A DNA stretch of 64,000 bases, taken from positions 256,001 to 320,000 of IMG/VR virus record IMGVR_UViG_3300024331_000007; one strand, written 5' to 3'. Positions 1-13,897 of the stretch are shown piece after piece. The notes beneath the pieces are model-generated. The model did no database searches and was not told the origin of the DNA. It saw only the letters and a list, made by a program, of their open reading frames with translations. Source of the stretch: a virus. Lineage: Duplodnaviria; Caudoviricetes. Positions within the stretch are counted from its first letter, which is position 1. Each line of letters starts with the position of its first letter. The position numbers and the translations under genes are program-made.

Positions 1-202
1 CCTCTTCGTCGGACATTTTTCTAATGTTGCGTGAAGCTTTCTGAGCACCATCGTTAAATCTTGAGGTTTGAGTCAGAACAGCCAGCCCCAATGTTTCTCT
101 GACTGATGAAACTTTTCCAGTCTCCATAAATGGTTCACGAAGATTGTGCCGCCAATATACCATATCACCACTGGCTAGCTCTACCCCATCAACATCTTTC
201 AT
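1..202 (-). CDS. KOW/SH3-like small protein, family A (3' end runs off the window)
   Basis: Manual translation MKDVDGVELASGDMVYW...RNIRKMSDEE; ATG at 202 overlaps the upstream stop (ATGA); paralogous to 420-653 and 650-874. Confidence 0.8.
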   Translation of the reverse strand, partial: MKDVDGVELASGDMVYWRHNLREPFMETGKVSSVRETLGLAVLTQTSRFNDGAQKASRNIRKMSDEE

Positions 203-423
203 GAGTGTTCCAACTTCCACAGCATTGCTTTCTCGTCAGATAATTTTACAAGTTTGTTAGGTGGAATATAAAACGTATAAGAGAGTATATCATCGTCCAA
301 AATACTAATGTTTGGGAACTCTACTTGCGCCATTTTGGTTTTTCTATTCATAGCCTGAACAACACCAATCATACTTTTCTTTTGACGATGTTTACATCTA
401 ACAATATCACCCTTATTAATCAT
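199..423 (-). CDS. KOW/SH3-like small protein, family A, with LWKLE tail
   Basis: MINKGDIVRC...KLSDEKAMLWKLEHS; start 423 chosen from ATGA overlap. Confidence 0.8.
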   Translation of the reverse strand: MINKGDIVRCKHRQKKSMIGVVQAMNRKTKMAQVEFPNISILDDDILSYTFYIPPNKLVKLSDEKAMLWKLEHS

Positions 424-653
424 GCGTTTTCCAACTTCCACAGCATCATAATTTCAGGAGATGCTTTTTTTAAATTTGTGAGGTATTTGGTCATCACTTT
501 GTCTGCTCTTACATCAGTAACGTCAATCCATTCTCCACTTGAGTATGATGATGTTACTGTTCCTAATCTGTTGTATGAGAAATTTTCTTCATCACTCATC
601 TTCCACAAGACCAAATCCCCGTAATCAAGTTTATTATTGTCAACGTCTTTCAT
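420..653 (-). CDS. KOW/SH3-like small protein, family A, with LWKLE tail
   Basis: MKDVDNNKLDYGDLVLW...EIMMLWKLENA; start 653 from ATGA overlap. Confidence 0.8.
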   Translation of the reverse strand: MKDVDNNKLDYGDLVLWKMSDEENFSYNRLGTVTSSYSSGEWIDVTDVRADKVMTKYLTNLKKASPEIMMLWKLENA

Positions 654-874
654 ACGTTTTCTAGCTGCCACAGCATTGCCTCTTCGTCGGACATTTTTCG
701 TACATTGATAGGAAGCTTTTCCACTAACATACGATTAGTTGTTCGAATGGTTAAATAAGGAGTTTCCTGCGGCGATCCTACAATTCCGATACTGCTAAAG
801 GAATTATATTCTCCGTTAATTCTGTACCAAACTATGTCTCCCACTTCCAGTATTTTTCCGTCGGTATCTTTCAC
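650..874 (-). CDS. KOW/SH3-like small protein, family A
   Basis: MKDTDGKILEVGDIVWY...KMSDEEAMLWQLENV; GTG start overlapping the upstream stop. Confidence 0.8.
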   Translation of the reverse strand: MKDTDGKILEVGDIVWYRINGEYNSFSSIGIVGSPQETPYLTIRTTNRMLVEKLPINVRKMSDEEAMLWQLENV

Positions 875-1101
875 GCGCTCTCCAATTTTGTTACCATATT
901 ATGAAGGATAGTTCTGGCAGCACGATACCAGCATTGTTCTTCACTGGTAAAACTATATTCAATTGCCTTTTCGCTGGTTGTATTCGGATCAACGTTTTCG
1001 GGAAAAATCATATACCACTCGCCCATTGATTCGGATCGGGTATGGCATTTGCAGTTTGGATAAACTGCTTGGACTATTGCTTTGTGTTCTTCAATATTCA
1101 T
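871..1101 (-). CDS. YP-AW-KLE family small protein (family B)
   Basis: IVQAVYPNC...QCWYRAARTILHNMVTKLESA. Confidence 0.85.
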   Translation of the reverse strand: MNIEEHKAIVQAVYPNCKCHTRSESMGEWYMIFPENVDPNTTSEKAIEYSFTSEEQCWYRAARTILHNMVTKLESA

Positions 1102-1427
1102 TATGACGCTTTCTTACTTCTTCGAAAAATAATCGGTGATCGCGGTTTGTCTTGTGTATTACCTTCAAGCTGATACATGATTTCTTCGTCAATGTGTTGG
1201 CGAATTTCCTTCCAAGTTTTTCGCCAGTCATCGTGACCATCCGTGCGATAGACAATCCCTAAAAGATTGCCTTTAATTTCGTCAGTGGCGTTTGAAACAT
1301 CATACACAGCCATGTTCCTTTCCCACCATCGTTTTATTTCTATTTTTGTGTACATGTTGCGAATGTATCGTTCATTCTCATCCATGTCTCCATCACCAAA
1401 CCAACCACCATCTTCAAAAATTGCCAT
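1101..1427 (-). CDS. Diverged, extended family B-like protein
   Basis: YIRNMY...LLG...WKEIRQHIDEEIMYQLEG; coupled to neighbours. Confidence 0.7.
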   Translation of the reverse strand: MAIFEDGGWFGDGDMDENERYIRNMYTKIEIKRWWERNMAVYDVSNATDEIKGNLLGIVYRTDGHDDWRKTWKEIRQHIDEEIMYQLEGNTQDKPRSPIIFRRSKKAS

Positions 1428-1630
1428 TAGCTCTCCAATTCTTCCAGCATATCTTTACGCAATGTTCTGGCGGCACTTCTCCATGCAACAGTATTCGAAT
1501 ATCCACTATAGCCCAAAACCTTTAGTCCGATTGGATCAGCGTATATCACGTATTTGACTCTTTCAACTTTGTTGTCTTCGTCACAGAATGCTTTTTTATA
1601 CACACTCCTGACGAATGATTTATTTGTCAT
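1427..1630 (-). CDS. Family B small protein
   Basis: MTNKSFVRSVY...AWRSAARTLRKDMLEELES. Confidence 0.85.
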   Translation of the reverse strand: MTNKSFVRSVYKKAFCDEDNKVERVKYVIYADPIGLKVLGYSGYSNTVAWRSAARTLRKDMLEELES

Positions 1631-1845
1631 GATTTTAAATGTGCCAGCATCTTGCGTCCCATATCAACAACGGCATCTTTCCATGCAAGATGTGGAGTTG
1701 GCCCCCACCCCATTATATTCCTGATTCCCTTTCTGCTTGTTTGAACATATACAACGTACTTATCAAACAGAATGTTATCATTCTTGCCTTTCAACTCACA
1801 TACTGCTGAGGGATAGACATTCAAATATTTGTCTTTATATGTCAT
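1627..1845 (-). CDS. Family B small protein
   Basis: YLNVYPSA...GWGPTPHLAWKDAVVDMGRKMLAHLKS. Confidence 0.85.
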   Translation of the reverse strand: MTYKDKYLNVYPSAVCELKGKNDNILFDKYVVYVQTSRKGIRNIMGWGPTPHLAWKDAVVDMGRKMLAHLKS

Positions 1846-2051
1846 TCTTTTTCCAGAATCGATACCATTTTCTTTCCAATTGCTTCAGCGGCCATGTCCC
1901 ATGCTTTTTCTTCGCTCTCCATATCGTACCCGATCATGTTTGGCGCTAATCCACCAAAATCATAGATCAAATAATACGAACCAGACGGAGATGGAATTTC
2001 TCGGCATTCCGCCTGTGGGCAAGCACCCATCACTACTTTTTTGTTTTTCAT
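1842..2051 (-). CDS. Family B small protein
   Basis: VVMGACPQA...EEKAWDMAAEAIGKKMVSILEKE. Confidence 0.85.
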   Translation of the reverse strand: MKNKKVVMGACPQAECREIPSPSGSYYLIYDFGGLAPNMIGYDMESEEKAWDMAAEAIGKKMVSILEKE

Positions 2052-2269
2052 TTTTCAAACCTTTCCAACATTGAATTTTTGATTTTATCCGCAGCGTACT
2101 TCCAAACTCTTTTCGGTGGTCCCGGTATCAACTGATTAGATATAACTGAATCGCCGTTCCTTATGTAATACAATTGGTTTAATTTCGCATGGTATCCAGA
2201 AGCCCCAAAGGTTGTTATTGCAAGTCTAGCCTTTGGATATATGCTCAGCACCAATTCCTTATTAGTCAC
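2048..2269 (-). CDS. Family B small protein
   Basis: MTNKELVLSIYPKA...VWKYAADKIKNSMLERFEK. Confidence 0.85.
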   Translation of the reverse strand: MTNKELVLSIYPKARLAITTFGASGYHAKLNQLYYIRNGDSVISNQLIPGPPKRVWKYAADKIKNSMLERFEK

Positions 2270-2486
2270 TGTTACCCTCTAACTTTCTGAGCATTGTCAG
2301 TTGAATAGTTTCCCATGATGTTTTCCAAGCATCTCTGCTGGATGTTCCATAACCCAATAGTTGATGCATCCGTGTTCCGTTTTTGCCCATCCACGTATAA
2401 TACACTCTCCACTGCCGTTTATCACCAACTACTTGTTTGCATGTGGAATTTGGATGAACTCGCAGTACATAATCTCTTGCTGTCAT
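2262..2486 (-). CDS. Family B small protein
   Basis: VLRVHPNS...GYGTSSRDAWKTSWETIQLTMLRKLEG. Confidence 0.85.
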   Translation of the reverse strand: MTARDYVLRVHPNSTCKQVVGDKRQWRVYYTWMGKNGTRMHQLLGYGTSSRDAWKTSWETIQLTMLRKLEGNSD

Positions 2487-2698
2487 GCAGCCTCTAACTG
2501 TGAAAGCATTTTTTGCCTGAATGTTTCAGCAACCTGTTTCCATGCATCTTCTTCGCTCATATAACTGTGACCAACAATGTATTCGCGATTGTGACCATCC
2601 ATTGCATAAATCACATACATGGATTCGGCGTCTGTATACTCTTGGAGCATACATATCGCAGTGGGTAATACGGATTGAACAAACTTTTTCTCACTCAT
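2483..2698 (-). CDS. Family B small protein
   Basis: MSEKKFVQSVLPTA...SEEDAWKQVAETFRQKMLSQLEAA. Confidence 0.85.
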   Translation of the reverse strand: MSEKKFVQSVLPTAICMLQEYTDAESMYVIYAMDGHNREYIVGHSYMSEEDAWKQVAETFRQKMLSQLEAA

Positions 2699-2916
2699 CT
2701 GGTTAACTCTCTTAACATCAATTCCTGAATAACTTTTGCTGCGCTATACCAAGCCTCTTCCTCTGTTCTTCCCATTCCAATCAAATCAGTTCGTGCGCCT
2801 TCTATTGTTCGACCCAATTCGTATATTCCAAATCCTCTTCCACCAACATACACTCGACCAAAGATTGCGTCGGCAAATGGAAACGTTGCATGAACAACAG
2901 CCATATCATCTACCAT
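2695..2916 (-). CDS. Family B small protein
   Basis: MVDDMAVVHATFPFA...GMGRTEEEAWYSAAKVIQELMLRELTR; start moved to 2916. Confidence 0.8.
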   Translation of the reverse strand: MVDDMAVVHATFPFADAIFGRVYVGGRGFGIYELGRTIEGARTDLIGMGRTEEEAWYSAAKVIQELMLRELTR

Positions 2917-3164
2917 TCTAGTTTCTTCATCATTTTTCTTGTAATAACATTCCATGCATTTTCCCATGCTTTCGGTTGAGATTTTGTGCTGTATCCGATC
3001 CACACTTTCCCAAATTCATCTCCATAAATTTGGTAATGGACTGTATTGTCATCGAATGTCAATTTCATGCATCCAGCGTCGGGATATACCGCAACAACAT
3101 TCTGTTGACTATCAGTATTTAATCCAGCCATTTTTTCAATAGTTGCTGGGGTTCTGTGATTCAC
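2910..3164 (-). CDS. Family B small protein
   Basis: VVAVYPDA...PKAWENAWNVITRKMMKKLEW. Confidence 0.85.
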   Translation of the reverse strand: MNHRTPATIEKMAGLNTDSQQNVVAVYPDAGCMKLTFDDNTVHYQIYGDEFGKVWIGYSTKSQPKAWENAWNVITRKMMKKLEW

Positions 3165-3385
3165 GATTCTAACGTCTCCATCATTCTCTTTGTAATCTCA
3201 TTTGCAGCATCCTGCCATGCTTCCTTCGGAGTGCTTCCTGTTCCTAAAAGGCGCTTGTATGATGATTTTGTTCCTTTGGGTTGGCGTCGAATGAATACAC
3301 CAAAATAAATACGACCACTGGTGCTCTCGCCCTGATATAGGTAAGCTTCGGGATAAATTGATAGCACATGTGGTTTGGCTTTCAT
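3161..3385 (-). CDS. Family B small protein
   Basis: MKAKPHVLSIYPEA...GTGSTPKEAWQDAANEITKRMMETLES; start 3385. Confidence 0.85.
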   Translation of the reverse strand: MKAKPHVLSIYPEAYLYQGESTSGRIYFGVFIRRQPKGTKSSYKRLLGTGSTPKEAWQDAANEITKRMMETLES

Positions 3386-3573
3386 TGTTCCAGTTTCTGC
3401 ACCATTCTTTTGCAAATTCTATTTGCAGCCTGTTCCCATACAGCTTCTTCAGATTCATAGCTAATCGCCAGATACTCCGTTCCGATCCAAACCCCAAAGA
3501 ATCCTTCAAGGCTTTGATCTGTCACAAGTCTTACGTTTGGGTATGCTGCTTTTACTATGTCTTTATTCATCAA
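3382..3573 (-). CDS. Family B small protein
   Basis: IVKAAYPNV...SEEAVWEQAANRICKRMVQKLEQ. Confidence 0.85.
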   Translation of the reverse strand: MMNKDIVKAAYPNVRLVTDQSLEGFFGVWIGTEYLAISYESEEAVWEQAANRICKRMVQKLEQ

Positions 3574-3782
3574 TTCTCCAACTTTCTCATCATCATGCGA
3601 TTTATATCAATCGCTGCATCCTTCCACGCTTCACTTCTTGATGAATGCCATTCGTTTGATATCGGCCTGCCAGTTGAAAGATCAAAAATTGCAAAGAATG
3701 TTTTAGGCGAAAGAACAGTTGTTTCACTGGTAACACATTTTGCTTCTGGATAAACTGTTAATACCAATTTTCTGTTTTTCAC
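3570..3782 (-). CDS. Family B small protein
   Basis: VLTVYPEA...SEAWKDAAIDINRMMMRKLEN. Confidence 0.85.
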   Translation of the reverse strand: MKNRKLVLTVYPEAKCVTSETTVLSPKTFFAIFDLSTGRPISNEWHSSRSEAWKDAAIDINRMMMRKLEN

Positions 3783-3994
3783 GATGCAAGTGTCCTGAGT
3801 ATTTCGTAGTTCAAATTATCCGCTGCTGCTTGCCACGCCATTTCTTTTGTGGTTGACTTTCGCATATTACGCCAGCACATTGAAAGGTTTGTCCCATCAC
3901 TTGTGCGAACAAACCACTGTTTACTGACACGAACGCTCTGAATGCATTTAGCATCTGGGTACAATGACAACACGAATTTTTGTTCTGGTATCAT
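3779..3994 (-). CDS. Family B small protein
   Basis: MIPEQKFVLSLYPDA...EMAWQAAADNLNYEILRTLAS; start 3994. Confidence 0.85.
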   Translation of the reverse strand: MIPEQKFVLSLYPDAKCIQSVRVSKQWFVRTSDGTNLSMCWRNMRKSTTKEMAWQAAADNLNYEILRTLAS

Positions 3995-4206
3995 CCTTCT
4001 AATTTCTTCAAAAATTGTTTTTGAACCATATCGTAGCTCTTTTGCCATGCTAGGCTTTCCTGTTTGTCGTCCGAATCAAGGTAGTATCTGTCGCCATGCT
4101 CATAATAACAAATGATTACAAATGAATCAGTTACTGATGGTTTTAAAAACCATACAGCCTGTGCCGTTGGATACATCTTCAATAAAGAACGTTTTGCGTT
4201 TTTCAT
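3991..4206 (-). CDS. Family B small protein
   Basis: LLKMYPTA...SLAWQKSYDMVQKQFLKKLEG. Confidence 0.85.
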   Translation of the reverse strand: MKNAKRSLLKMYPTAQAVWFLKPSVTDSFVIICYYEHGDRYYLDSDDKQESLAWQKSYDMVQKQFLKKLEG

Positions 4207-4412
4207 GCTTCCAGCTTTTCCAATGCCAGTCTTCCAAGTTCATTTCGAGCAAATTCCCACGCTGTGTTAGGTTTCAATGATGGACCGCCCATCATTGTAG
4301 GGAATCGAGTAGGCAGAGCCACATAGTAAAAGAATCTTTGACCACCAAAAGACTTTACTTTTCTGAGTTTGGCTTCTGGAAAACTCTGTAGAACTATTTG
4401 TCTTGCTGTCAT
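4203..4412 (-). CDS. Family B small protein
   Basis: VLQSFPEA...TAWEFARNELGRLALEKLEA. Confidence 0.85.
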   Translation of the reverse strand: MTARQIVLQSFPEAKLRKVKSFGGQRFFYYVALPTRFPTMMGGPSLKPNTAWEFARNELGRLALEKLEA

Positions 4413-4651
4413 TACGACTCCAGTTTCTTAACCATCTTTTTTCCAATCCCCGCAGCCGCATCTTTCCATGCTCCAGCACGAGATGTCTGATGATAACCAA
4501 GAATTTGCATGTTCTTGTTCTCATCAATGTAAGATATCATAAATCCTTTGCCATTATTGAATATCGGACGACAATGAGCATTCTTGTATGAGGCGCGGGC
4601 TACGTTTCGTTCAGCTACCGCCTGTACTTCGTTTTTCGTCGTTGTCATCAA
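4412..4651 (-). CDS. Family B small protein
   Basis: VARASYKNA...GAWKDAAAGIGKKMVKKLES. Confidence 0.85.
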   Translation of the reverse strand: MMTTTKNEVQAVAERNVARASYKNAHCRPIFNNGKGFMISYIDENKNMQILGYHQTSRAGAWKDAAAGIGKKMVKKLES

Positions 4652-4869
4652 TTCTCCAACTTTAATAAGAAGTCATTCTTTATTTCTTCTGCTGCTGTCA
4701 TCCACGCATCAGGTTCATTTATGAAACTGCTTCCGACCGTGTCAAGAATATCAGTGGTTCTGCTATTCTGAAACACCGTAAACGAACCCCACAGATACTT
4801 ACATACTGCATTTGGATAAACACCAAGAACTACATTTCTAGCCTCGATAAAATCGTTGTAATAGCTCAT
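4648..4869 (-). CDS. Family B small protein
   Basis: VLGVYPNA...EPDAWMTAAEEIKNDFLLKLEN. Confidence 0.85.
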   Translation of the reverse strand: MSYYNDFIEARNVVLGVYPNAVCKYLWGSFTVFQNSRTTDILDTVGSSFINEPDAWMTAAEEIKNDFLLKLEN

Positions 4870-5099
4870 GATTCCAACTTCTTCAATAATTTTTGGCCCA
4901 TAACCTGTTTAGCCCAATACACAGAATTTCTCCAAGCCAATATTTCATTTTTTTGACTTGCTCCCAGATTGTCAATTTGAGTTCCATAATCAAAATATAT
5001 GATATACCACCGCGTTGTTTTCCCGCGATATGTATTATTAACTGCTACACATCTGGCACTTGGAAAATGTAGTTTGACAAATTTTTCGGCCCTAGTCAT
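4866..5099 (-). CDS. Family B small protein
   Basis: FVKLHFPSA...EILAWRNS...KLLKKLES. Confidence 0.85.
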   Translation of the reverse strand: MTRAEKFVKLHFPSARCVAVNNTYRGKTTRWYIIYFDYGTQIDNLGASQKNEILAWRNSVYWAKQVMGQKLLKKLES

Positions 5100-5102
5100 G
5101 CA

Positions 5103-5300
5103 TCAAAAACCTTTCAGGATTGAGCGAAAGATGGATCGAAGCACTGCACCGTTTGACGGGAGTTTATGGAAATTGTGAAAATTGTGAAAGTCATTTGGAT
5201 CAAATTCAACAAAATGCTCGTATGTAGTTTTCCCATGTACTTGTCTGAGAATCCTCTTTCCGTCCATTGTTATTTTCTGCATGGTTTCAACAGTTGTCAT
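5103..5300 (-). CDS. Small protein with C-terminal amphipathic helix
   Basis: Ends AVLRSIFRSILKGF; coupled by ATGA. Confidence 0.7.
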   Translation of the reverse strand: MTTVETMQKITMDGKRILRQVHGKTTYEHFVEFDPNDFHNFHNFHKLPSNGAVLRSIFRSILKGF

Positions 5301-5488
5301 CTGATTCCAAACCCTTTCAGTATCGAACGACCAATTGCCAGTAAAACTTTTCCAGAAGATGGTATTACTTCAAAACATGTTATCGTAGCCTTATGTTTGC
5401 CTTTTTGAACTGTGTAAAACTGAGACACCTTATAGGTGTCTGCCATTGCCAATGGAAAAAGTTCTTTGACTCTTTGTTCGTTCGTCAT
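5297..5488 (-). CDS. Family B-like N-terminus with swapped amphipathic C-terminus
   Basis: MTNEQRVKELFPLA...KVLLAIGRSILKGFGIR; start 5488 from ATGA overlap. Confidence 0.7.
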   Translation of the reverse strand: MTNEQRVKELFPLAMADTYKVSQFYTVQKGKHKATITCFEVIPSSGKVLLAIGRSILKGFGIR

Positions 5489-5592
5489 TTTGAAATCAAA
5501 CCCTTCCAAATCACATTCAAAAGAACAGTCAACACTTTCTTGCGCGATGCTACAGGTGGGACGTATGGATTATACACTCCACCGTCCCACAT
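5485..5592 (-). CDS. 35-aa peptide with amphipathic C-terminal helix
   Basis: MWDGGVYNPYVPPVASRKKVLTVLLNVIWKGLISK; start just after the 5598 stop; tail resembles the two downstream genes. Confidence 0.5.
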   Translation of the reverse strand: MWDGGVYNPYVPPVASRKKVLTVLLNVIWKGLISK

Positions 5593-5597
5593 TTCTC

Positions 5598-6803
5598 TCA
5601 CTTCACACCCCGAAGCAAGATGCTGTCTCCGTTGATTGCTTCGCGAAGCGGAGTAGCAACGGCCTTGATTCCATTGAACCACTTGACGGCACCCGGCTTG
5701 CCATAGTTGGAAAATTCCTTCAACTGTTCGGCTGGCTTACGCAGAGTTTTTTGCACACTCTTTGTAGGATCGATGTTCGTCAAACGAGTGCTTTTGACTT
5801 CAAAAGACATTCCATTCAACGCAACATAGTGTCCTAATTTCCGAAGGCGAGTATTGTAAACCCACAATTCAGAGCATTTCAAAACTTGCGTTGCGTCAAT
5901 GCTCGTCAACTTCAATTCCTTGTACTCACGAAGAAACTTGAGTTTCGAAACAATCTTCGAGGGTGGTTTTGGTTTGCGCTGGCGAGTCTTATGCATGCTC
6001 TGCTTTTGATGACTGAACACGCTAATCTCGCTGATTGCTGTTTCCCACCATTCGATGGCCGCTTTCATCTTGCGCTTTCCTACGTGTTCATAGGACTCAG
6101 CAATTTGTGCATCTTTTCCAGCAAGTGCAGTTTTGTACTCGCTCAAATACTTCTGACAATAGTCAATCAAATCCTTTGAGCGATTCGCGGGAATTGTTGT
6201 TTCAGGGTCTTTCAGAATAGAGGAAACGGAAGGCGCTTTCTTCGCGGTTGAATAATCCGCTCCCACGAATTGATCGAATGCGTAATCCACTTCACCGCAA
6301 ACTTTACGAATCCGCGCTCTGAGATGATCCTGAATGTTTGGTTTTGATGTACTTCCTGCTTCCTTCTCTTCAATCTGCTTTTGATTAGTAAGACATTCCT
6401 TGATGAACTTCACGATGAAACGGCGTTCACGAAAACGCAGGAACAGTCCGACATGTGCCATACGCAAAACCTTGGCGACGGTAACAGAAAAAGTCAGTGT
6501 GGAATTTTTGATGGCAATAAGAAGTTCAGGAAAATGACCGCTCAAACCCAATGCGGAAAGTCCAAGTGCAATCAGTTCCTTATCTTCCTGAGTCTGTGCG
6601 TACCAGTTCAAGGCTGCGCTTAATTGTTTGTCATACTCAGTGCGAGTCCATGCCTTTTGAACATCGATAGAAGGCCACGTTGGTTCTGTTTCTCCAATGT
6701 ATTTCGCTCCCTCGCGTTTGAAATGCAAGGTACGAATGGGCTTCAAAGCCGCTGGCTGAAAAGAGCGTACAGGTCTGGAAGGCGTTTTTGCGCTGTTCTT
6801 CAT
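5598..6803 (-). CDS. Conserved T4-superfamily hypothetical protein
   Basis: 401 aa; C-terminal block ELWVYNTRLRKLGHY...SVQKTLRKPAEQLKEF recalled as conserved in large T4-like phages. Confidence 0.8.
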   Translation of the reverse strand: MKNSAKTPSRPVRSFQPAALKPIRTLHFKREGAKYIGETEPTWPSIDVQKAWTRTEYDKQLSAALNWYAQTQEDKELIALGLSALGLSGHFPELLIAIKNSTLTFSVTVAKVLRMAHVGLFLRFRERRFIVKFIKECLTNQKQIEEKEAGSTSKPNIQDHLRARIRKVCGEVDYAFDQFVGADYSTAKKAPSVSSILKDPETTIPANRSKDLIDYCQKYLSEYKTALAGKDAQIAESYEHVGKRKMKAAIEWWETAISEISVFSHQKQSMHKTRQRKPKPPSKIVSKLKFLREYKELKLTSIDATQVLKCSELWVYNTRLRKLGHYVALNGMSFEVKSTRLTNIDPTKSVQKTLRKPAEQLKEFSNYGKPGAVKWFNGIKAVATPLREAINGDSILLRGVK

Positions 6804-6809
6804 GTGCCT

Positions 6810-6838
6810 ATGATACCGAAGTTTAGAGCAAAAGTCAA
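6810..6838 (-). promoter_or_regulatory. Sigma70-type promoter for the leftward operon (predicted leaderless)
   Basis: TTGACT (6838-6833), 17 bp, TATCAT (6815-6810), then 6 nt to ATG 6803; no SD. Confidence 0.7.
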
Positions 6839-6899
6839 CGCAATCCGTAAAACCAGTGAAATCATATGCTTATTTGGCAAAATAAAATAAACTTTTTGG

Positions 6900-6928
6900 T
6901 TGCAATTCTGACCAAACTTTGCTATTCT
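6900..6928 (+). promoter_or_regulatory. Early promoter cassette 1
   Basis: TTGCAA, 17 bp, extended -10 TGcTATTCT, followed by conserved atatRRGTAGTCGAGARGGAG leader. Confidence 0.8.
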
Positions 6929-6954
6929 ATATAAGTAGTCGAGAGGGAGAAACG

Positions 6955-7272
6955 ATGAGACGGAGAGTACACACAATTGAAACCCTTCGGATGCAAGGCA
7001 AACTAAACAAAGACTTTGCAAAAACCACTCCCGACCATGCCACGGACGGAACGAAAGCCTATGATGTGATTGGCATTTCAGGTGATCATTGGCAGGTTCA
7101 CAAGCACGGATGCAGCGCAACGTTCTCCAAGCCGGGTCAAGTTTTGACTGCTGATCTTGTTTGGTCCGCAAAGACAACCGATATACCCGCGCAAGTTATT
7201 GATTCTGAACTTCTTGACATGGGTTTTGACTACACTTGCGTAGTTTTCCACAATTGCACAAAGAAATATTAA
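6955..7272 (+). CDS. Hypothetical early protein
   Basis: SD GAGGGAG before ATG 6955; MRRRVHTIETL... Confidence 0.75.
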   Translation: MRRRVHTIETLRMQGKLNKDFAKTTPDHATDGTKAYDVIGISGDHWQVHKHGCSATFSKPGQVLTADLVWSAKTTDIPAQVIDSELLDMGFDYTCVVFHNCTKKY

Positions 7273-7281
7273 ACTTTTTGG

Positions 7282-7310
7282 TTGACTTTGCCGCCAAAGT
7301 TTGATATTCT
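7282..7310 (+). promoter_or_regulatory. Early promoter cassette 2
   Basis: TTGACT, 17 bp, TGaTATTCT; same leader as cassette 1. Confidence 0.85.
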
Positions 7311-7335
7311 ATATGGGTAGTCGAGAAGGAGCCAC

Positions 7336-7563
7336 ATGAGCTACAAAGCAGCGATTAAGGTCGGTCTCGGAAACGAACGTAGCTACAACTCTCTGCGCTT
7401 TGCAACTCCCGAAGAAGCAACGGCCTATGCGAAGAATTTGTTCTCTCGCTGGATGCTCATGACTGGTTTTGAAGTCGAACCCTCTGAGGATGCCGTGAAC
7501 TATGTGTGGGAAAACAATGTACTTACGGCAATTGCCGTTACAAACCCACCGATCAGTGTATAA
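7336..7563 (+). CDS. Conserved phage hypothetical protein
   Basis: AAGGAG SD; NSLRFATPEEATAYA...RW...SEDAVNY. Confidence 0.8.
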   Translation: MSYKAAIKVGLGNERSYNSLRFATPEEATAYAKNLFSRWMLMTGFEVEPSEDAVNYVWENNVLTAIAVTNPPISV

Positions 7564-7591
7564 CCAATCTCAATATTCGGGAGAACAAACG

Positions 7592-7855
7592 ATGCGCCCA
7601 CTCAAGTTTGAAGGTGTTGCTGAAGTTGGAGACAAGATTCGCGCCTATGATTTTGAACCTATGGAGGGGCGTCCTGACCGCTATATCGAGGGCGTCGTTC
7701 GTGAAGTTGTTCAATGGGTTCGCGCTGGTGGATACAAAGCATATGACATTGTTCTGACATATGACAGCATGGGCGGAAGGCCAATAGGCACAGCAATTTA
7801 CGTTCCAATGGAAATTGGAATGGACTTCGACATTCGAGTTCAGAAAATCAGTTAA
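7592..7855 (+). CDS. Conserved phage hypothetical protein (SH3-like)
   Basis: GGGAG SD; MRPLKFEGVAEVGDKIRAYDF...YIEGVV. Confidence 0.8.
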   Translation: MRPLKFEGVAEVGDKIRAYDFEPMEGRPDRYIEGVVREVVQWVRAGGYKAYDIVLTYDSMGGRPIGTAIYVPMEIGMDFDIRVQKIS

Positions 7856-7903
7856 CCCCTTTGTTTCTGCACGAAAAAATGTCAGTATTTTCGCATAATT
7901 TGC

Positions 7904-7932
7904 TTGCATTCATGACCAAACTTTGATATTCT
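7904..7932 (+). promoter_or_regulatory. Early promoter cassette 3
   Basis: TTGCAT, 17 bp, TGaTATTCT; same leader. Confidence 0.8.
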
Positions 7933-7958
7933 ATATGAGTAGTCGAGAGGGAGACACA

Positions 7959-8279
7959 ATGATTGCAAACGCGAAAGTTTCTCAGAGGCTTGAAGGTTTC
8001 GTAGCAAAAGTACAGGCCGAAACACTTGCGTATTACGCCAAAAAGTTCCCTACGCTCATTCCTTCGATCATCGAAGTTGAAGAGGGCAGCAAGTTCTATC
8101 GCATCGTAAAAGCAGAGCGTGGTACACGTAGCGTTCACTCGTTTGTGTCCAAGGCGAACGGCGACATTTTCAAGGCTGCTGGTTGGAAGGCACCCGCGAA
8201 GCATGTTCGTGGCAACATCTTTGCCGCTGATTACGGCTGGTCTTCAATGAATGTGTATGGCGCGAAATATCTCCGCTAA
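7959..8279 (+). CDS. Conserved phage hypothetical protein
   Basis: GSKFYRIV...SVHSFVSKANGDIFKAAGWKAPAKHVRGNI, a widespread phage motif (recalled). Confidence 0.85.
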   Translation: MIANAKVSQRLEGFVAKVQAETLAYYAKKFPTLIPSIIEVEEGSKFYRIVKAERGTRSVHSFVSKANGDIFKAAGWKAPAKHVRGNIFAADYGWSSMNVYGAKYLR

Positions 8280-8319
8280 ACAATTTGTGTATGTCAACCG
8301 ATAGCAAAGGATTGAAGCA

Positions 8320-8598
8320 ATGACTGATCTATTTTCGGCAACGATCAAGCAATACATCTACGGAACATCAGGAACTGAACTTCCGCCGCCTGTTGAAAAA
8401 GTAAAGTCAACGACATTTTTATCTTTGCCAACTGAGACGAAAGAAGAATTCGAGCGCAAAGTCCAAGAATACGGCATGGCACTGCGCATCAAAGCTGCCA
8501 ATGTTACTCCACGGCCATATAGTCAACGAGATGGAATTGATTGGTCTATATCATGTATTGAACCTCGACCTTATGATTTTGATAGCAACGCGGAGTAA
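8320..8598 (+). CDS. Hypothetical protein
   Basis: 92-aa ORF filling the operon. Confidence 0.65.
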   Translation: MTDLFSATIKQYIYGTSGTELPPPVEKVKSTTFLSLPTETKEEFERKVQEYGMALRIKAANVTPRPYSQRDGIDWSISCIEPRPYDFDSNAE

Positions 8599-8604
8599 TC
8601 GTTT

Positions 8605-8844
8605 ATGTCTCAGCATAGCTCCGCTAAACAATTTGTGCAATCCCTTTACCCATCTGCGATATGCAAGTGGGTAAAGGTGCTTCCGAATGAGTTTGTGATT
8701 ACCGTTTCGTTTGCTGAATGGAACGGCTTTGAAAGTCGCCAATATAAAACAGTTGAATTGGAATGGGCAACAACTGCGATTGGCGCATGGTGCGCAATGC
8801 GCGAACTAATCAATGCGAAGATTATGGAGAAACTAAACTCGTGA
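8605..8844 (+). CDS. Family B small protein
   Basis: KQFVQSLYPSA...GAWCAMRELINAKIMEKLNS. Confidence 0.85.
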   Translation: MSQHSSAKQFVQSLYPSAICKWVKVLPNEFVITVSFAEWNGFESRQYKTVELEWATTAIGAWCAMRELINAKIMEKLNS

Positions 8845-9164
8845 TCGACAAAAAGATTCGCCCACTGCCGAAAAGACTTTCGAAGTTTCAAAGGATTGTT
8901 CTGGCGTCGTATCCAAACGCCCGAATCGGAAGTGCCGATGCTGTCAAGGAAACAATGAAACCTTATTGGGATCGCAAGTCTGGATTTGAGATGTTTGACA
9001 GCTTTGGTAAAACTTCGAAGTGGGCAATTTATACAGAGCCAGAAAGTGATCGAATTACAATCTTAGTTAACGTGATTGGCGTGAGTTCTAGCTCACAATC
9101 GAAGGCATGGGAAGATGCTTGCAACGTAATGGGCGCATTCATGTTGATGAAATTGGAGAAATAA
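8841..9164 (+). CDS. Family B protein with internal insertion
   Basis: GTG start 8841; IVLASYPNA...KAWEDACNVMGAFMLMKLEK. Confidence 0.8.
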   Translation: MIDKKIRPLPKRLSKFQRIVLASYPNARIGSADAVKETMKPYWDRKSGFEMFDSFGKTSKWAIYTEPESDRITILVNVIGVSSSSQSKAWEDACNVMGAFMLMKLEK

Positions 9165-9592
9165 TGGAAAAGTCCGTAATCTCGTCAGAACAAATGGATA
9201 ACTTGTGCTTTGCCAGCTATCAACTATTGCAGGCGATGAGTAATGTTTATGGTTCCGATCCTGCCTATGAAATGTTCCTCAAACTTGAGGAAGTACTAGG
9301 ACCTGAGGTTAAGGGCAATCTATTTTTGAAGATGTTAGACAGCCAATACACAGGTGCTGGCCCTATGCATTTCAAATTTCCAAATGGTCAGTGTGGAAAC
9401 GCCATTCTCATGATTCGAGGCGTCCGTGAATTTTCAGTTGACAAATATGGAAACAAATGGAGTCTGAAGGACGCCAAAGATGTTATCGACACGTCGAGGT
9501 TTGGTGGTATCGGAACAATTCATTTCATAACAGTTGGCGAGCGTAACGAATTTATCAAGCTGTTGAAGTCTAATAACGGCGTGACCATATGA
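9164..9592 (+). CDS. Protein with ribosomal L7/L12 C-terminal-domain-like motif
   Basis: ILMIRGVREFS...WSLKDAKDVID resembles the bL12 CTD IKxVRxxTGLGLKEAKxLVE; start 9164 with GGAG SD. Confidence 0.65.
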   Translation: MEKSVISSEQMDNLCFASYQLLQAMSNVYGSDPAYEMFLKLEEVLGPEVKGNLFLKMLDSQYTGAGPMHFKFPNGQCGNAILMIRGVREFSVDKYGNKWSLKDAKDVIDTSRFGGIGTIHFITVGERNEFIKLLKSNNGVTI

Positions 9593-9822
9593 GTCCGAAC
9601 GAAACAATTGTGAAGGCAGTCTATCCGAATGCAGAAATTCGGGAAGTAGCATCTGGAGTTTATCGAGTCTTTACGCAGCCAAGCGGATTTTCTAAAGATG
9701 GAGATTTGACTTTTAGCATTGGGCATTCTCTCGGCGCTTCATGTTTCACAGATACAGAAGACAAATGGAAGAATGCGGCAGATTCGATCAATTTCAAAAT
9801 GATGAGGGAACTTGAATTATGA
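9589..9822 (+). CDS. Family B small protein
   Basis: IVKAVYPNA...DKWKNAADSINFKMMRELEL. Confidence 0.85.
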   Translation: MSPNETIVKAVYPNAEIREVASGVYRVFTQPSGFSKDGDLTFSIGHSLGASCFTDTEDKWKNAADSINFKMMRELEL

Positions 9823-10031
9823 CACCAAAGCAAACAATTCAGCAAGTTTATCCACACGTAAATTGCCACAAAATAACATGGGCAATTGGATCGAACCTTC
9901 CCAGATTTCAAGTTTATGTAAATGGAATCTCAACTTCATTTGGAGTAACTCGTTACGCAGCATGGAAGGAAGCATTGGTTTGGTATAATAACGCCATTCA
10001 AAAACGGCTGCTGAGAAAGCTGGAATCATGA
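9819..10031 (+). CDS. Family B small protein
   Basis: IQQVYPHV...AAWKEAL...RLLRKLES. Confidence 0.85.
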   Translation: MTPKQTIQQVYPHVNCHKITWAIGSNLPRFQVYVNGISTSFGVTRYAAWKEALVWYNNAIQKRLLRKLES

Positions 10032-10273
10032 AAGAATATCTTCGTAATCACAATAATGTAACGATGTTTCTGAGTACGTGGGTTTCGTTTCCAATTTGTA
10101 TTCTTTTGGTTCATAACATGACCATTCCAGTAATGCCGTGGCATCTTTGTTTCAAGCTCGTTTTTCCAATGCTGGGATTTTGCTCAGTTGTATTTTTTCT
10201 GTTGGGTTGGATGACTGACGGAATGAATAGGCAGACCTTAAAGGAAGAATTTTTGCGGAAACTGGAATCGTAA
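10028..10273 (+). CDS. Two-TM membrane protein with family B tail
   Basis: Two hydrophobic segments, then KEEFLRKLES. Confidence 0.75.
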   Translation: MKEYLRNHNNVTMFLSTWVSFPICILLVHNMTIPVMPWHLCFKLVFPMLGFCSVVFFLLGWMTDGMNRQTLKEEFLRKLES

Positions 10274-10482
10274 TGTACAAAACAGAAAAATTCGTGAAGT
10301 CTGTTTTTCCAACTTCCAAAGCGTGTCCTTTATATGGAGGGACCTCGTTCATGATCGACGGATTTCCAGAAGGTTCAGGAATGAAACGATGGGACACATG
10401 GCATGAAACTGAACGAAAATCATGGAATGATGCAGCTAGACAGATACACAGAAATATGTTGAAGAAACTGGAGAATGCGTGA
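10273..10482 (+). CDS. Family B small protein
   Basis: KFVKSVFPTS...KSWNDAARQIHRNMLKKLENA. Confidence 0.85.
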   Translation: MYKTEKFVKSVFPTSKACPLYGGTSFMIDGFPEGSGMKRWDTWHETERKSWNDAARQIHRNMLKKLENA

Positions 10483-10688
10483 GCAAGGCTCAAAAATTCG
10501 TGAAGTCTCTTTATCCCGATGCGTACCTGCTAGAAACGCTATCACCTGTTGGCAATCATCGGTATCAGGTAGTGTACGATATTACTGGAACCTTTATGCC
10601 AACATGGTATTGGGCTAAAAAGAATGATGCATGGAAACAGGCTGAGTTAAGAATAAATCAGAGACTCATGGAGAAGCTAGAATCGTGA
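10479..10688 (+). CDS. Family B small protein
   Basis: KFVKSLYPDA...DAWKQAELRINQRLMEKLES. Confidence 0.85.
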   Translation: MSKAQKFVKSLYPDAYLLETLSPVGNHRYQVVYDITGTFMPTWYWAKKNDAWKQAELRINQRLMEKLES

Positions 10689-10894
10689 GAGCAAGGGATC
10701 AAGTTTTGGCGAGGTATCCAGATGCTGTGGTGTTCAAATCATCCGCCACCTGTATGTGGGAACTGTACTCAAAATTGAGAGCCAAACATTGCTTCAACGG
10801 ATTTATTGTTTGGGGATGTATGACTAAAGGATCGGCGTGGCAAGAAGGACTAGACTATCTTGACCGCGAACTTTTGAAGAAGTTGGAATCATGA
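10685..10894 (+). CDS. Family B small protein
   Basis: VLARYPDA...SAWQEGLDYLDRELLKKLES. Confidence 0.85.
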   Translation: MRARDQVLARYPDAVVFKSSATCMWELYSKLRAKHCFNGFIVWGCMTKGSAWQEGLDYLDRELLKKLES

Positions 10895-11130
10895 CAGATA
10901 AAGAATTTGTTCAAACCACATATCCCGATGCTGTAATGAGAACTAAAGATTTCTTTGGTCTTAACAAATTAGGCACTGACGAAAACATCTACGCAATTTT
11001 TCGCGGGGATCGAAAGAAAGCCAAACGAAACCATGCAATAACAATGTTCTGGACTAAGACGGAAGACGATGCATGGAAGCAAGCAGCCGCTTACCTACGA
11101 CAACAATTTTTGAAGAAGTTGGAATCATGA
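10891..11130 (+). CDS. Family B small protein
   Basis: MTDKEFVQTTYPDA...EDDAWKQAAAYLRQQFLKKLES. Confidence 0.85.
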   Translation: MTDKEFVQTTYPDAVMRTKDFFGLNKLGTDENIYAIFRGDRKKAKRNHAITMFWTKTEDDAWKQAAAYLRQQFLKKLES

Positions 11131-11327
11131 CTGATAAGCAGTTTGTACTCTCAATCCACGACGACGCATTTGCATCTGAGAGCAATATTTCGGGCTTCAT
11201 AGTAATCTATGACGATAACCTGCAATTCCACCAACTCAGTCAATACTGGATCATTGAAGAGGATGCGTGGAAGGATGCAGCAGATCGACTGAGGGAAAGA
11301 TTTCTGGAAAAATTGGAAAGCCAATGA
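11127..11327 (+). CDS. Family B small protein
   Basis: MTDKQFVLSIHDDA...EEDAWKDAADRLRERFLEKLESQ; start 11127. Confidence 0.85.
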   Translation: MTDKQFVLSIHDDAFASESNISGFIVIYDDNLQFHQLSQYWIIEEDAWKDAADRLRERFLEKLESQ

Positions 11328-11536
11328 CAGATAAGCAATTTGTAAAATCAGTTTGTCCGACTGCCCATCTGCGTAATACGCAGAAAAGTAAAACTGTTTT
11401 TTGGTATATTGACACTCGCCTAAAAGGTGCTTACTGGCCTAAAAAAATCTCAGGAGAGTTTATTATCAAGGGCGATGCGTGGAAACATGCAGCAGAAAGA
11501 CTTCGTATGGACATGTTAAGGAAACTTGAATCATGA
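11324..11536 (+). CDS. Family B small protein
   Basis: MTDKQFVKSVCPTA...DAWKHAAERLRMDMLRKLES; start 11324. Confidence 0.85.
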   Translation: MTDKQFVKSVCPTAHLRNTQKSKTVFWYIDTRLKGAYWPKKISGEFIIKGDAWKHAAERLRMDMLRKLES

Positions 11537-11775
11537 CGGAGGAAGCTGAACTCGCAAAACAGTTTGTGCTATCCATTTATGCTGGAGCTAAATTTGTGCG
11601 AAGAGAGGAGATGCCCAACATAGATGCATTCGCACCAACACCCGACGATTGCCAAATTATGGATGCGGATAGGCGTCATTCTTTAGCTATGAAATGGTCC
11701 TACAATGAAAATGATGCTTGGATTGACGCCCGAAATTTTATCAACTTCAAAATGATGCAGAGGTTGGAATCATGA
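11533..11775 (+). CDS. Family B small protein
   Basis: KQFVLSIYAGA...ENDAWIDARNFINFKMMQRLES. Confidence 0.85.
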   Translation: MTEEAELAKQFVLSIYAGAKFVRREEMPNIDAFAPTPDDCQIMDADRRHSLAMKWSYNENDAWIDARNFINFKMMQRLES

Positions 11776-11998
11776 ATCCGTTCGAAGCAGTTGATTACGT
11801 CCGAGGAATATATCCGTTTGCTTATTGCAAGGAAACCTTTTCCTATGGGAAAAGGGGTTTCGTTATTATGGACGCGGAACGCGGCTCAGGTCATGACGAA
11901 GAATTTTTAACTGGATGGAGCTATACCACAAGAGAACAGGCGTGGGTGAAGCTGTGAGATACATTCATCTCAACATGCTTAGGAAGTTTGAATCATGA
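11772..11998 (+). pseudogene. Frameshifted family B member (1-nt deletion near 11946, or sequencing error)
   Basis: ORF stops at 11957 after EQAWVKL; adding one base gives EQAWVEAVRYIHLNMLRKFES, ending at the ATGA junction 11995-11998. Confidence 0.75.
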
Positions 11999-12216
11999 CT
12001 GACAAGGAGTTTGTTATATCAGCTTATCCCAATGCCGAATGCGATGACAGTCGGCTATTATTTGACCGTAATGGCGTTTTCATGTATGCAATTTATTTGG
12101 CGGGTAGCAAACCTCGTTCAAGTATTTCGGCAATGTGGGCGGAATCCGAAGAACAGGCATGGAAGGAGGCAGCGGACATTATCAGATATGATCTTCTGAG
12201 GAAGTTTGAGTCATGA
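11995..12216 (+). CDS. Family B small protein
   Basis: MTDKEFVISAYPNA...SEEQAWKEAADIIRYDLLRKFES. Confidence 0.85.
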   Translation: MTDKEFVISAYPNAECDDSRLLFDRNGVFMYAIYLAGSKPRSSISAMWAESEEQAWKEAADIIRYDLLRKFES

Positions 12217-12413
12217 ACGAAGACATGGAATTTGTAAAACGATTGTATCCAACCGCAGTGTATGATTCTCATGCATTTTGGGTTTGTGCGGACACAATTG
12301 AGGCTGGTAAGAAACGCACATATATTTTAGGTATCGGTGGAAATGCAAAGAATGGTTGGACCCATGCAGCGCAACACCTTCGTAATAGGGTGTTGCGCCA
12401 ATTTGAAAGTTAA
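12213..12413 (+). CDS. Family B small protein
   Basis: FVKRLYPTA...GIGGNAKNGWTHAAQHLRNRVLRQFES. Confidence 0.85.
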   Translation: MNEDMEFVKRLYPTAVYDSHAFWVCADTIEAGKKRTYILGIGGNAKNGWTHAAQHLRNRVLRQFES

Positions 12414-13897
12414 CCAATCTTGAAACAGATTTTCCCACCGGGTCTTGACGATGCACTGTAGTTTTTTCGGCTGAAAAATTTAACTGTTCCTGTGAATACA
12501 GGTGGCCAAATTACTTGGAAGTTTGAGAACGATGCTCCATTACCAGTTTTCTTAACGCTCGTCTTAACTTGAAGCATATTGCTGCGGCTCAAAATCTCTC
12601 TGAAAAAGTCAGTCACAAATTTTGAGTTCTTATTCAAATGATCAGTGACTGAGTGAGCCACGATGGTTAGCAAATGATAACCAACTGTATAATTCGGACT
12701 GTTCACATTTGGATTTGTGACTGGATTTTTCAGCAATGCCTTTAGCTCTTTCGACAAATGCTTCTTATCCATATGAGGATCGGCGATTGCTCTTTTGATT
12801 TCATCACGCATTGCTGGAGTTATTATCTTATAAAGCACACCAAGGACCAGCGGCCCTTCTTCAGCAGATTTATCCTTCACAACTTTCATAACACTGAACA
12901 GGCTTTTGTACTTTCCGCTTTCCACTAAATCTTCGTATCGTTCTGGATTTCGTTCTATGGCAGAAGTTAAGCTTGTGATGCTTGCTGCTGCTCCGCCCTT
13001 TCCATCCTTGCTGCTGATACCAATCTTATCATTCTTCAGAATTAGATAACTATCAATCAAGGCTTCCCTGTCGCTCATTGGATATCCAATTAATTTGATC
13101 TTCCTCCAACTTGAACCCATTGGTTTCAGCAATTGATCCTCGACTTCTCTGTAATCTCCAGAAACAAAATGTCCTGTGAGTAGCGCGATAGGTGCGGCAA
13201 TTTCTCCAAGGCTAACTTCATATGATGTTGCATATTGGGCAGCATTGGCAACAGGTGTATCAAAACCAGCATATACGTTCTTTACTAGCTGAATAGATTG
13301 CTGACGAACGTCCTGTGGTATTTCTGTATGAGTTGGAAGATTCGTCTGAATTGTTTCCATAATCTCATCAACGGTCATGTATCTGCCGTCACCCACAACG
13401 ACGCTTGGGGTGAGATTCAGGTCAGTTTTTTGTTGTACGTTGTCGTTAATTGAATAACCAGTGTCTCTGGCAAAATCGCTGTTGCTCCAAAAGAATGGAA
13501 CAGCACCAGCACTTTTTGTATTGAATAATTTTACAAATGCAACTGTCTCGCCTCTGCCATTCTTCCATAGAGTAACAAGGGCTGCTCGACCATTCGTATT
13601 AACCAAATTCCAATTTGCATTTGAGATTCTTGCTTTCTTTTGATATTGCGCAAGAACATCCATAACTTTCATGTAACCAGTTTTCAGTAGCTTTTTCTGC
13701 TCTGCTGGCGGAAGTTTACGGGCCTGTTTTGGCAGGGCTTCAATCGTGTCGTTTTCATAAAATGCGGCATCTTCGGGGAAAATAGCATTGCCGATGGCAG
13801 TTATCTTATGCCCGTCTTTGTCGGTGAATACAGCCGACTCCTGTGAGCGGACATATATTCCACGACTTCCAGCTTCTAGTAGTTGATGATATTTCAT
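12410..13897 (-). CDS. Putative capsid-targeted protein with possible PD-(D/E)xK-like nuclease motif
   Basis: N-terminus MKYHQLLE resembles the T4 capsid-targeting sequence; LGE...LIDSY...IGISSK; late promoter 5 nt upstream. CDS is certain, function is inferred. Confidence 0.6.
   Translation of the reverse strand: MKYHQLLEAGSRGIYVRSQESAVFTDKDGHKITAIGNAIFPEDAAFYENDTIEALPKQARKLPPAEQKKLLKTGYMKVMDVLAQYQKKARISNANWNLVNTNGRAALVTLWKNGRGETVAFVKLFNTKSAGAVPFFWSNSDFARDTGYSINDNVQQKTDLNLTPSVVVGDGRYMTVDEIMETIQTNLPTHTEIPQDVRQQSIQLVKNVYAGFDTPVANAAQYATSYEVSLGEIAAPIALLTGHFVSGDYREVEDQLLKPMGSSWRKIKLIGYPMSDREALIDSYLILKNDKIGISSKDGKGGAAASITSLTSAIERNPERYEDLVESGKYKSLFSVMKVVKDKSAEEGPLVLGVLYKIITPAMRDEIKRAIADPHMDKKHLSKELKALLKNPVTNPNVNSPNYTVGYHLLTIVAHSVTDHLNKNSKFVTDFFREILSRSNMLQVKTSVKKTGNGASFSNFQVIWPPVFTGTVKFFSRKNYSASSRPGGKICFKIG

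Follow-up and report, generated by a model that had tools for sequence, protein, structure and literature searches.

A conserved C-terminal tail in the small-gene arrays of a large phage and its codons as a ribosome site for the following gene

We analyzed a 64,000-nucleotide (nt) stretch of phage DNA (the window), bases 256,001-320,000 of the single 359,890-bp virus contig IMGVR_UViG_3300024331_000007 (Caudoviricetes; 41% G+C). The left end of the window holds two divergently transcribed arms of densely packed small genes. Many of the encoded proteins, among them members of two families named A and B, end in a short motif typified by M-L-R-K-L-E-S, which we call the tail, and the DNA at some of the gene junctions that encode it is repeated exactly. 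Selection was found to act on the tail mainly at the protein level, and its codons are in addition tuned for Shine-Dalgarno (SD) pairing at the start of the next gene. Genes were called with our own crude caller, which gave 676 open reading frames (ORFs) genome-wide; the tail count rests on stop positions and is independent of start choice. A search of 50,697 phage records, by megablast with the region and by tblastn with a family B member, returned no cultured relative, and an 841-amino-acid (aa) protein matched only PA5oct-like Pseudomonas jumbo phages (32% identity over 18% of its length). Syntenic relatives among metagenomic phages were L001 and L002, at 66-80% nucleotide identity, and the more distant L011 and L012, from 49-kb and 353-kb contigs.

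The left arm (199-6803, minus strand) contains three family A genes (199-423, 420-653, and 650-874, all minus), each predicted to encode an SH3-like barrel followed by a C-terminal helix of the form S-D-E-E-A-M-L-W-K/Q-L-E-N/H-x. Every stop codon among them overlaps the following start as ATGA or GTGA. Beside them lies an array (871-5099, minus) of some 21 family B genes, 63-108 aa in length, nearly all of which end Φ-L/M/V-x-K-L-E-x with stop/start overlaps; a 108-aa family B-related gene at 1101-1427 (minus) lacks the tail and ends RRSKKAS. The right arm (about 6990-12413, plus) carries a second array (8605-12413, plus) in which family B genes are accompanied by an unrelated 157-aa gene (9119-9592) and a membrane protein (10028-10273, plus) with two hydrophobic segments at residues 11-35 and 39-64. 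The translations bear the endings that were originally predicted: AMLWKLEHS (199-423) and MMLWKLENA (420-653) in family A, MLRKLES in family B (e.g., 11324-11536), and EFLRKLES in the membrane protein, where the tail lies on the C-terminal side, which is probably cytoplasmic. An ortholog of this membrane protein in a related phage is 52% identical overall and identical over the final 7 residues. The last family B gene of the right arm (12213-12413, plus) is convergent with 12410-13897 and ends TTT GAA AGT TAA, with no ATGA overlap, no GG, and no downstream gene, and it nonetheless keeps a tail (VLRQFES), as does its ortholog L002:4736-4930 (ILRQFEQ). The other gene proposed as array-terminal, 27058-27300 (minus), ends TLEKFEE and is ATGA-coupled to a 339-aa gene (26042-27061); next to it is a second outlying family B gene, 27302-27526 (minus), ending MLDKFEN. 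One family B gene, 11772-11998 (plus), is broken by a 1-nt frame shift after ...REQAW. Its remainder (..EAVRYIHLNMLRKFES) is open in the other frame, with the tail MLRKFES and the ATGA junction with the next start intact; a full-length relative exists (P0120), and recent pseudogene formation, a sequencing error, or recoding could account for the break.

Under the strict pattern [MLFIV][LMIV]..[LF]E.{0,3}$, that is, Φ-[LMIV]-x-x-[LF]-E plus 0-3 residues, the tail ends 89 of the 676 ORFs genome-wide; internal windows of these proteins give an expectation of 1.3. About 13% of the phage's genes, or one in eight, thus end in a common helical tail, which nearly always lies 1-3 residues from the free C-terminus. 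The carriers are small: 80 of the 89 encode fewer than 110 aa, representing 80 of the 355 ORFs below that size, and within the window 30 of the 42 small array genes match strictly and 7 more do so loosely. We found no description of the motif in the literature.

To compare the carriers apart from their common ending, the small proteins were clustered after tail trimming and the cluster profiles were aligned by hhalign. Family B has 73 members in the genome, and superfamily A (SH3-like) has about 35, made up of sub-clusters fam1, 3, 7, 12, and 18 (linked at up to 97% probability) plus singletons. The tail is also borne by a five-member EWS family ending Y-V-L-F/Y-M-L-E-W-S, by six membrane proteins (genome positions 68259, 129431, 129706, 130008, and 130265 and window position 10028), and by several singletons, and three DUF4116-like repeat proteins have M-L-x-K-L endings. 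The tail-trimmed profiles of family B, superfamily A, the EWS family, and the membrane proteins had no similarity to one another (P = 0.27-0.95), and when the tails were kept only the last 8-28 columns aligned (P = 0.0012 for family B versus the membrane proteins; P = 1.5e-5 for fam3 versus EWS). The proposal that the tail is portable across unrelated scaffolds is therefore borne out as a fact of sequence; separate origin does not follow from the lack of profile similarity, although the soluble scaffolds are clearly different from the membrane ones. Outside family B the common piece is about 13 residues long, [ST]-K/D-x-E-x-Φ-L-x-x-L-E-x(1-2), and reads as a capped, idealized helix. We considered that the membrane proteins could be frame-shifted family B genes and rejected this, as their other frames give no B-like reading. 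The DUF4116-like proteins, in which the repeat unit is N-P-[ST]-x-E-x-Q-x-x-A, stand at the close of the family A array; they lie at L003:4510-4959 (genome 70510-70959), genome 137576-138070 and 138535-138816, and L011:10927-11100, with endings A-L-M-L-A-K-L-I-N, M-L-V-K-L-V-Q-Y-A, or M-L-A-K-L-A-E.

The original prediction had asked whether synonymous or nonsynonymous change is the more restrained in the tail, and the answer was conservation at the protein level. Across 34 ortholog pairs with L001 and L002, nonsynonymous divergence (pN) was 0.119 in the tail, compared with 0.219 in the preceding helix and 0.273 in the body, while synonymous divergence (pS) was 0.60 in the tail and 0.68 in the body (ratio of nonsynonymous to synonymous substitution, 0.11 versus 0.19). 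Nonsynonymous change in the tail is more than halved and synonymous change is nearly free: both tail leucines use 5-6 codons each, and the glutamate uses both of its codons. The serine after L-E is encoded by TCA in 53 of 57 cases (five sequences) when the stop is part of ATGA and by AGT, AGC, TCT, or TCA, with TAA or TAG stops, when the gene is uncoupled. About a dozen tail genes without any start near the stop still keep the tail, as do the array-terminal genes of three related loci, which end FEQ in L002, LES (AGC TAA) in L011, and FES (TCT TAG) in L012. Given the low pN, the near-free pS, and these uncoupled genes, conservation is not limited to SD-forming nucleotides, and the idea of a peptide tag survives this comparison.

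A second layer of selection lies on the codons. The next start overlaps the stop at -1 (ATGA, GTGA, or TTGA) in 56 of the 89 tail genes and at +2 (TAATG) in 10. The glutamate codon is GAG in 42 of 75 coupled tails (56%), compared with 27% in the bodies of the same genes (P = 1e-7) and 3 of 14 in terminal tails (P = 0.02 versus coupled tails), and leucine codons ending in G account for 77% in coupled tails versus 42% in same-gene bodies (P = 5e-9). The mean energy of the anti-SD duplex upstream of the next start was -4.76 kcal/mol for tail genes, similar to genes of 100 aa or more (-4.36 kcal/mol) and well below random positions (-1.69 kcal/mol). When the same tail peptides were given synonymous codons resampled from genome usage, the mean rose to -2.31 kcal/mol (P = 3e-11). 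It is therefore the codons, not the peptide, that make the ribosome site, and the tail peptide is not a by-product of that site. In ES-type tails the GGA lies 2-3 nt from the ATG, compared with the genome's usual spacing of 5-9 nt, and AGG or AAG codons lie 7-8 nt upstream of the start. Coupling also leaves a trace at the ends of coupled genes of other families, where K, E, and R are enriched 1.6- to 2.1-fold at positions -2 to -5 and 'LE' occurs near the end in 6.0% of coupled versus 2.1% of uncoupled genes; the 77 other ATGA-coupled genes have many unrelated C-termini.

Structure models place the tail of both families in a confident helix. The AlphaFold2 (AF2) model of family A, built from the paralogue alignment, shows a barrel of five strands and then a C-terminal helix at residues 63-72 (predicted local distance difference test [pLDDT] score, 92), and its Foldseek matches were KOW, PWWP, Tudor, and PhnA-like barrels (probability, 0.9-1.0; E around 0.01-0.08). 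At the sequence level, family A had no Pfam family at cut-off and no KOW match, and a word-indexed search found no relatives beyond this phage lineage. The family B model, built in the same way, has α1 at residues 3-10, a β-sheet, and α2 at residues 58-78 (pLDDT, 88; last block, 96). Its best matches among solved structures were double-stranded RNA-binding domains (dsRBDs), which were weak (Z, 5.4; root mean square deviation, 3.8 Å; 68 residues aligned; Foldseek E, 0.6-4), and a Z at this level may signify no more than a common arrangement; its look-alikes in the Atlas were uncharacterized phage proteins and the Phage_ABA_S, NinX, and dsrm families. Eight family B members gave no Pfam match at E up to 1, dsrm included, and in PHROG the tail-bearing proteins had no match below 0.05, family B being marginal at 0.06-0.09.

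Family B is nevertheless widespread: a profile search of 1.84 billion protein representatives returned 1302 clusters at E ≤ 0.001, and the strict tail was kept in 106 of the 134 best small matches. The proteins P0028, P0029, and P0035 at the top of the representative search were discarded as spurious low-complexity repeat proteins. The family's pattern is one of constant helices around a hypervariable middle, and in an alignment of 305 sequences the tail columns M64, L65, K67, L68, E69, and S70 were among the most conserved. In the same alignment, α1 positions 3, 6, 10, and 11 covaried with α2 positions 57, 60, 61, and 64, the pairs including M64, the first tail residue, with position 10, so that the first residue of the tail would appear to touch α1. 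Neither E69 nor K67 gave a covariation signal with the conserved N-terminal K4, D3, and E5, columns that are too invariant for one.

Our preferred explanation, which we hold with moderate confidence, is that the tail is a dual-coded structural helix, kept mainly for the protein, whose codons have been tuned as the SD element of the next gene. The tail would be the end of a short amphipathic C-terminal helix with a Ser/Thr N-cap, an acidic first turn, Φ-L, x, K, L-E, and a Ser/Asn/Gly C-cap. In family B it would form the final two turns of α2 in a dsRBD-like α-β-β-β-α domain, packed beside α1, and in family A a 10-residue helix after the SH3-like barrel. Where stop and start overlap as ATGA, the last 4-6 codons would also hold the SD element of the next gene, the synonymous codons AAG, TTG/CTG, and GAG being chosen to supply it; because the same codons hold both peptide and SD, the junction is dual-coded. 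The data show purifying selection on the protein, codon tuning for SD pairing, and no sharing of DNA between scaffolds; the structural role is probable, and the resemblance between unrelated scaffolds may reflect convergence, or sharing of great age, with both constraints acting on each scaffold.

Several observations weigh against a purely structural role. A module of 12-13 residues recurs on at least five scaffolds without detectable homology, and in the six membrane proteins it follows the last hydrophobic segment, with no soluble domain to pack on. In family B, the polar residues K67, E69, and S70 match the core positions in conservation (2.5-3.7 bits), which is unusual for a purely structural surface, and the burial of tail residues beyond M64 is presumed. 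The multi-domain relatives of family B keep the A-W..A-A..I helix and do not have the L-E-S end, indicating that the fold has no strict need for L-E-S. Coupling raises 'LE' only 2- to 3-fold elsewhere in the genome, and convergence would thus need a further common pressure. The recurrence across scaffolds, the polar K/E/S conservation, and the tails of membrane proteins are therefore not fully explained by structure, and we ranked a docking or degron role second, with coupling alone and a recombination site as minor alternatives.

The alternative that survives best, although we consider it rather unlikely, is that the tail is a portable docking, localization, or degron helix read by one common partner, which could be a host hub or the phage's own ClpS/ClpA/ClpP or DnaJ. 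A single machine would in that case be the attachment point for over 100 small, diversified early proteins, both soluble ones and ones bound to the membrane. The protein-level selection, the retention of the tail without coupling, the spread over unrelated scaffolds including six membrane proteins, the strongly conserved polar residues (K, E, and S), and the position so near the free C-terminus are all as expected of such a tag. The phage also encodes a DnaJ-like protein (63017-63619, plus) and a 769-aa ClpA-like double AAA+ ATPase (63665 onward, plus), both no more than candidate readers, as well as a ClpS adaptor (genome 156588-156827, L016) and a ClpP-like protease (genome 179995-180411, L010), which on paper would make a complete N-degron proteolysis set. 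The precondition of the tag proposal, conservation of the peptide, thus stood, but no reader was found, and several features do not suit one. The tails of families A and B are confidently modeled within their domains, and in family B the first residue covaries with α1. Degrons of the ssrA type have a nonpolar extreme C-terminus (..LAA-COOH); such an ending is absent from the tails, which are polar (E-S, E-N-A, E-K, or E-Q). ClpS recognizes N-termini rather than C-termini. The tails of family A have a net acidic charge and those of family B are neutral to basic, so that one charge-matched pocket is not obvious. A complex prediction combining residues 1-150 of the ClpA-like protein, the DnaJ-like protein, and the free C-terminal 31 residues of the membrane protein L003:2259-2438 gave no answer (score, 0.00) and speaks neither for nor against, and the tail-specific protease Peptidase_S41 is absent from the genome. 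That the helix docks more than 100 small proteins of at least five folds into one hub, as substrate-delivery adaptors or as proteins marked for timed removal, seems to us doubtful. Also set aside were a likeness of F-L-R-K to the C-terminal peptide of FtsZ and one of F-L-K-K-L to the membrane-targeting helix of MinD, given the net acidic family A tails; a prohead-protease site of the T4 type (L-x-E), to which the P3 residue is unsuited; and programmed frameshifting, there being no slippery sequence at the junction.

The repeated DNA had raised the further possibility that the junction is a site of cassette shuffling and is conserved for that reason, which we regard as very improbable. The repeat itself is as described: the 24-mer is exact at 10872-10895 and 11108-11131 (both plus), and its 21-nt core is exact at all three places, including 4866-4886 (minus), with 0 expected in shuffled sequence; the third copy of the full 24-mer (4865-4888, minus) has 2 mismatches. 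The first copy encodes F/L-L-K-K-L-E-S, the stop, and the ATGAC of the next gene, and the second is 88% identical to it over 42 nt because both next genes begin M-T-D-K. The minus-strand 21-mer encodes L-K-K-L-E-S and the stop, together with the ATG of the next gene, which overlaps that stop. Such a repeat is far beyond chance for random DNA, and even with identical peptides (LKKLES) and position-specific codon frequencies assumed, the chance that three of the seven LKKLE genes share one 21-mer is roughly 1e-3 by a hand estimate. The three genes are only 26-28% identical overall, which together with that estimate points to a strongly constrained spot, not a recent whole-gene duplication, with perhaps some local micro-conversion. 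The 24-mer is also merely one of several junction repeats, since exact repeats of 21 nt (1-21 and 679-699, encoding R-K-M-S-D-E-E of family A) and 19 nt (3567-3585 and 4645-4663, encoding K-L-E-N, the stop, and the ATGA of family B) were observed as well.

These exact 19- to 24-nt repeats would suit a recombination junction, as would the differences by whole genes between the arrays of related phages and a clean tail-to-tail indel (window 2048-2269, absent in L001). However, a second indel lies within a gene, where 1101-1427 (minus) holds about 226 nt absent from L001, and whole-gene indels are expected anyway from selection for intact genes. Only one indel is clean in the alignment of the whole arm with L001, which was unreliable at 66% identity. 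Codon identity at amino-acid-identical tail positions was 0.378 between scaffolds (0.393 expected) and 0.385 between distant members of one scaffold (0.403 expected), and it was raised only for neighbors within 600 nt (0.524 versus 0.423 expected); this excess in neighboring paralogues would favor recombination, but there is no DNA-level sharing between scaffolds. The orthologs in relatives do not have the exact 21-mer (L001, IFLEKLES; P0008, QFLEKFES), which, together with the low identity of the 21-mer genes, makes the shared DNA a local and recent feature and not a conserved site. No match to the tyrosine recombinase PF00589 was found in the whole 359,890-bp genome, with the control positive in 14 of 14 genomes, and no attC-like inverted repeat was detected, the repeat search giving only coding-sequence repeats between paralogues; indeed, genes that overlap by 4 nt leave no intergenic space for attC. 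Third positions vary freely, and the integron-like cassette junction of the original prediction is not supported. The exact repeats are by-products of the paralogue arrays, and would arise from the conserved C-terminus of paralogues, the forced ATGA, the conserved N-terminus (M-T-D-K) of the next gene, and slight local homogenization between neighbors. Short homology at the tail may well mediate the gain and loss of unit-length genes, as a consequence and not a cause of the conservation.

The least probable alternative is translational coupling alone, in which the conserved residues would be a mere product of the SD and stop/start nucleotides: it explains the codon choice, strongly SD-directed in coupled tails only, and the K/E/R and 'LE' bias at the ends of other coupled families, but it does not explain the peptide and is already largely refuted by the ortholog pN and pS (tail synonymous sites being nearly as diverged as those of the body), the serine codons and retained tails of uncoupled genes, and resampled-codon energies that leave almost no SD, with further weight against it from the M-L pair, which sits 15-20 nt upstream of the start and beyond SD range, the GGA of ES-type tails lying nearer the ATG than usual, and the many unrelated C-termini of the 77 other ATGA-coupled genes.

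Further features were observed around the arrays. At the head of the left arm lies a 401-aa protein (5598-6803, minus) with 84% identity to that of L001, and at the close of the right arm a 495-aa protein (12410-13897, minus) with 44% identity to its counterpart; both lack a Pfam match and flank the arrays in every relative. Between the arms, where transcription diverges, a 64-nt element occurs three times (6895-6958, 7277-7340, and 7899-7962, plus; 70-88% identical), each copy directly upstream of a plus-strand gene start. It contains a short inverted repeat (TTTGGT...ACCAAA), a TTGAC-like and TATTCTATAT stretch, and a GAGAGGGAGA ribosome site ending in ATG, and it looks like a reused promoter or leader module. 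A 71-aa IF1/eIF-1A-like gene (PF01176) lies within the small-gene array about 500 nt left of the window (L007:10288-10503; genome 255288-255503). It is 97% identical between the phage and L001, compared with 35-80% for its neighbors, and stands in the same place in all relatives (L001:6792-7007, L011:11596-11811, and L012:11301-11516). A SegE-type GIY-YIG homing endonuclease (PF19835, E = 2e-36) is encoded at 62428-62994 (plus), and L002 has NUMOD3 endonuclease genes (8221-9015 and 9751-10464) in the syntenic region right of the array.

In summary, small genes without known function fill much of every jumbo-phage genome, and family B alone accounts for more than 1,300 metagenome clusters without a Pfam match. 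The junction described here is a clean natural case of dual coding, in which one 20-nt stretch is selected both as peptide and as ribosome site and the two layers can be separated statistically. If a common partner does read the tail, the function of a hundred orphan proteins could be approached through that one handle; if the tail is purely structural, it cautions against taking common terminal motifs, or repeated DNA at the junctions of phage arrays, as signs of a tag or of a site for recombination.

Several known systems resemble parts of this arrangement. Integron cassettes are likewise arrays of small, promoterless, co-directional genes whose content varies between relatives, but here there is no integrase, no attC, and a 4-nt overlap between genes, and the junction is conserved as peptide, not as DNA. 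Portable C-terminal docking tails are known from SspB, whose XB motif binds the ClpX N-domain, from T4 gp43, gp55, and gp33, which bind the gp45 clamp, and from the ssrA tag. Those systems share with ours a short motif at the extreme C-terminus of unrelated proteins, and this genome encodes ClpA, ClpP, and ClpS; they differ in that the tail has no sequence resemblance to them and no identified receptor and, in families A and B, is modeled inside the fold and not as a flexible extension. Among large viruses, the poxvirus ankyrin/PRANC proteins exemplify multigene families in which the body varies and a C-terminal module stays constant. Tens of paralogues with a constant C-terminal element are found here too, although the element is 7-13 residues rather than a domain, with no ligase or hub partner known. 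The family B model resembles, at the weak match scores given above, the α1-β1-β2-β3-α2 order of the dsRBD fold, whose α2 ends in a hydrophobic A-L-x-x-L pattern that serves us as a lead only, and it has (E/D)-A-W-K where the dsRBD has its basic RNA-binding motif at the start of α2. In gene arrangement, the parallel is with translationally coupled overlapping genes, which are joined by ATGA or TAATG and carry the SD within the ORF upstream; the trp and gal operons and many phage arrays are examples. The stop overlaps the next start in 66 of the 89 tail genes, the SD pairing inside the last codons is as strong as at ordinary genes, and the codon bias appears only where a downstream gene is present. 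What sets these arrays apart, also from the other coupled genes of this genome, which are without such a peptide, is that the C-terminal peptide of the upstream gene is itself conserved, common to unrelated families, and kept when the gene is uncoupled.

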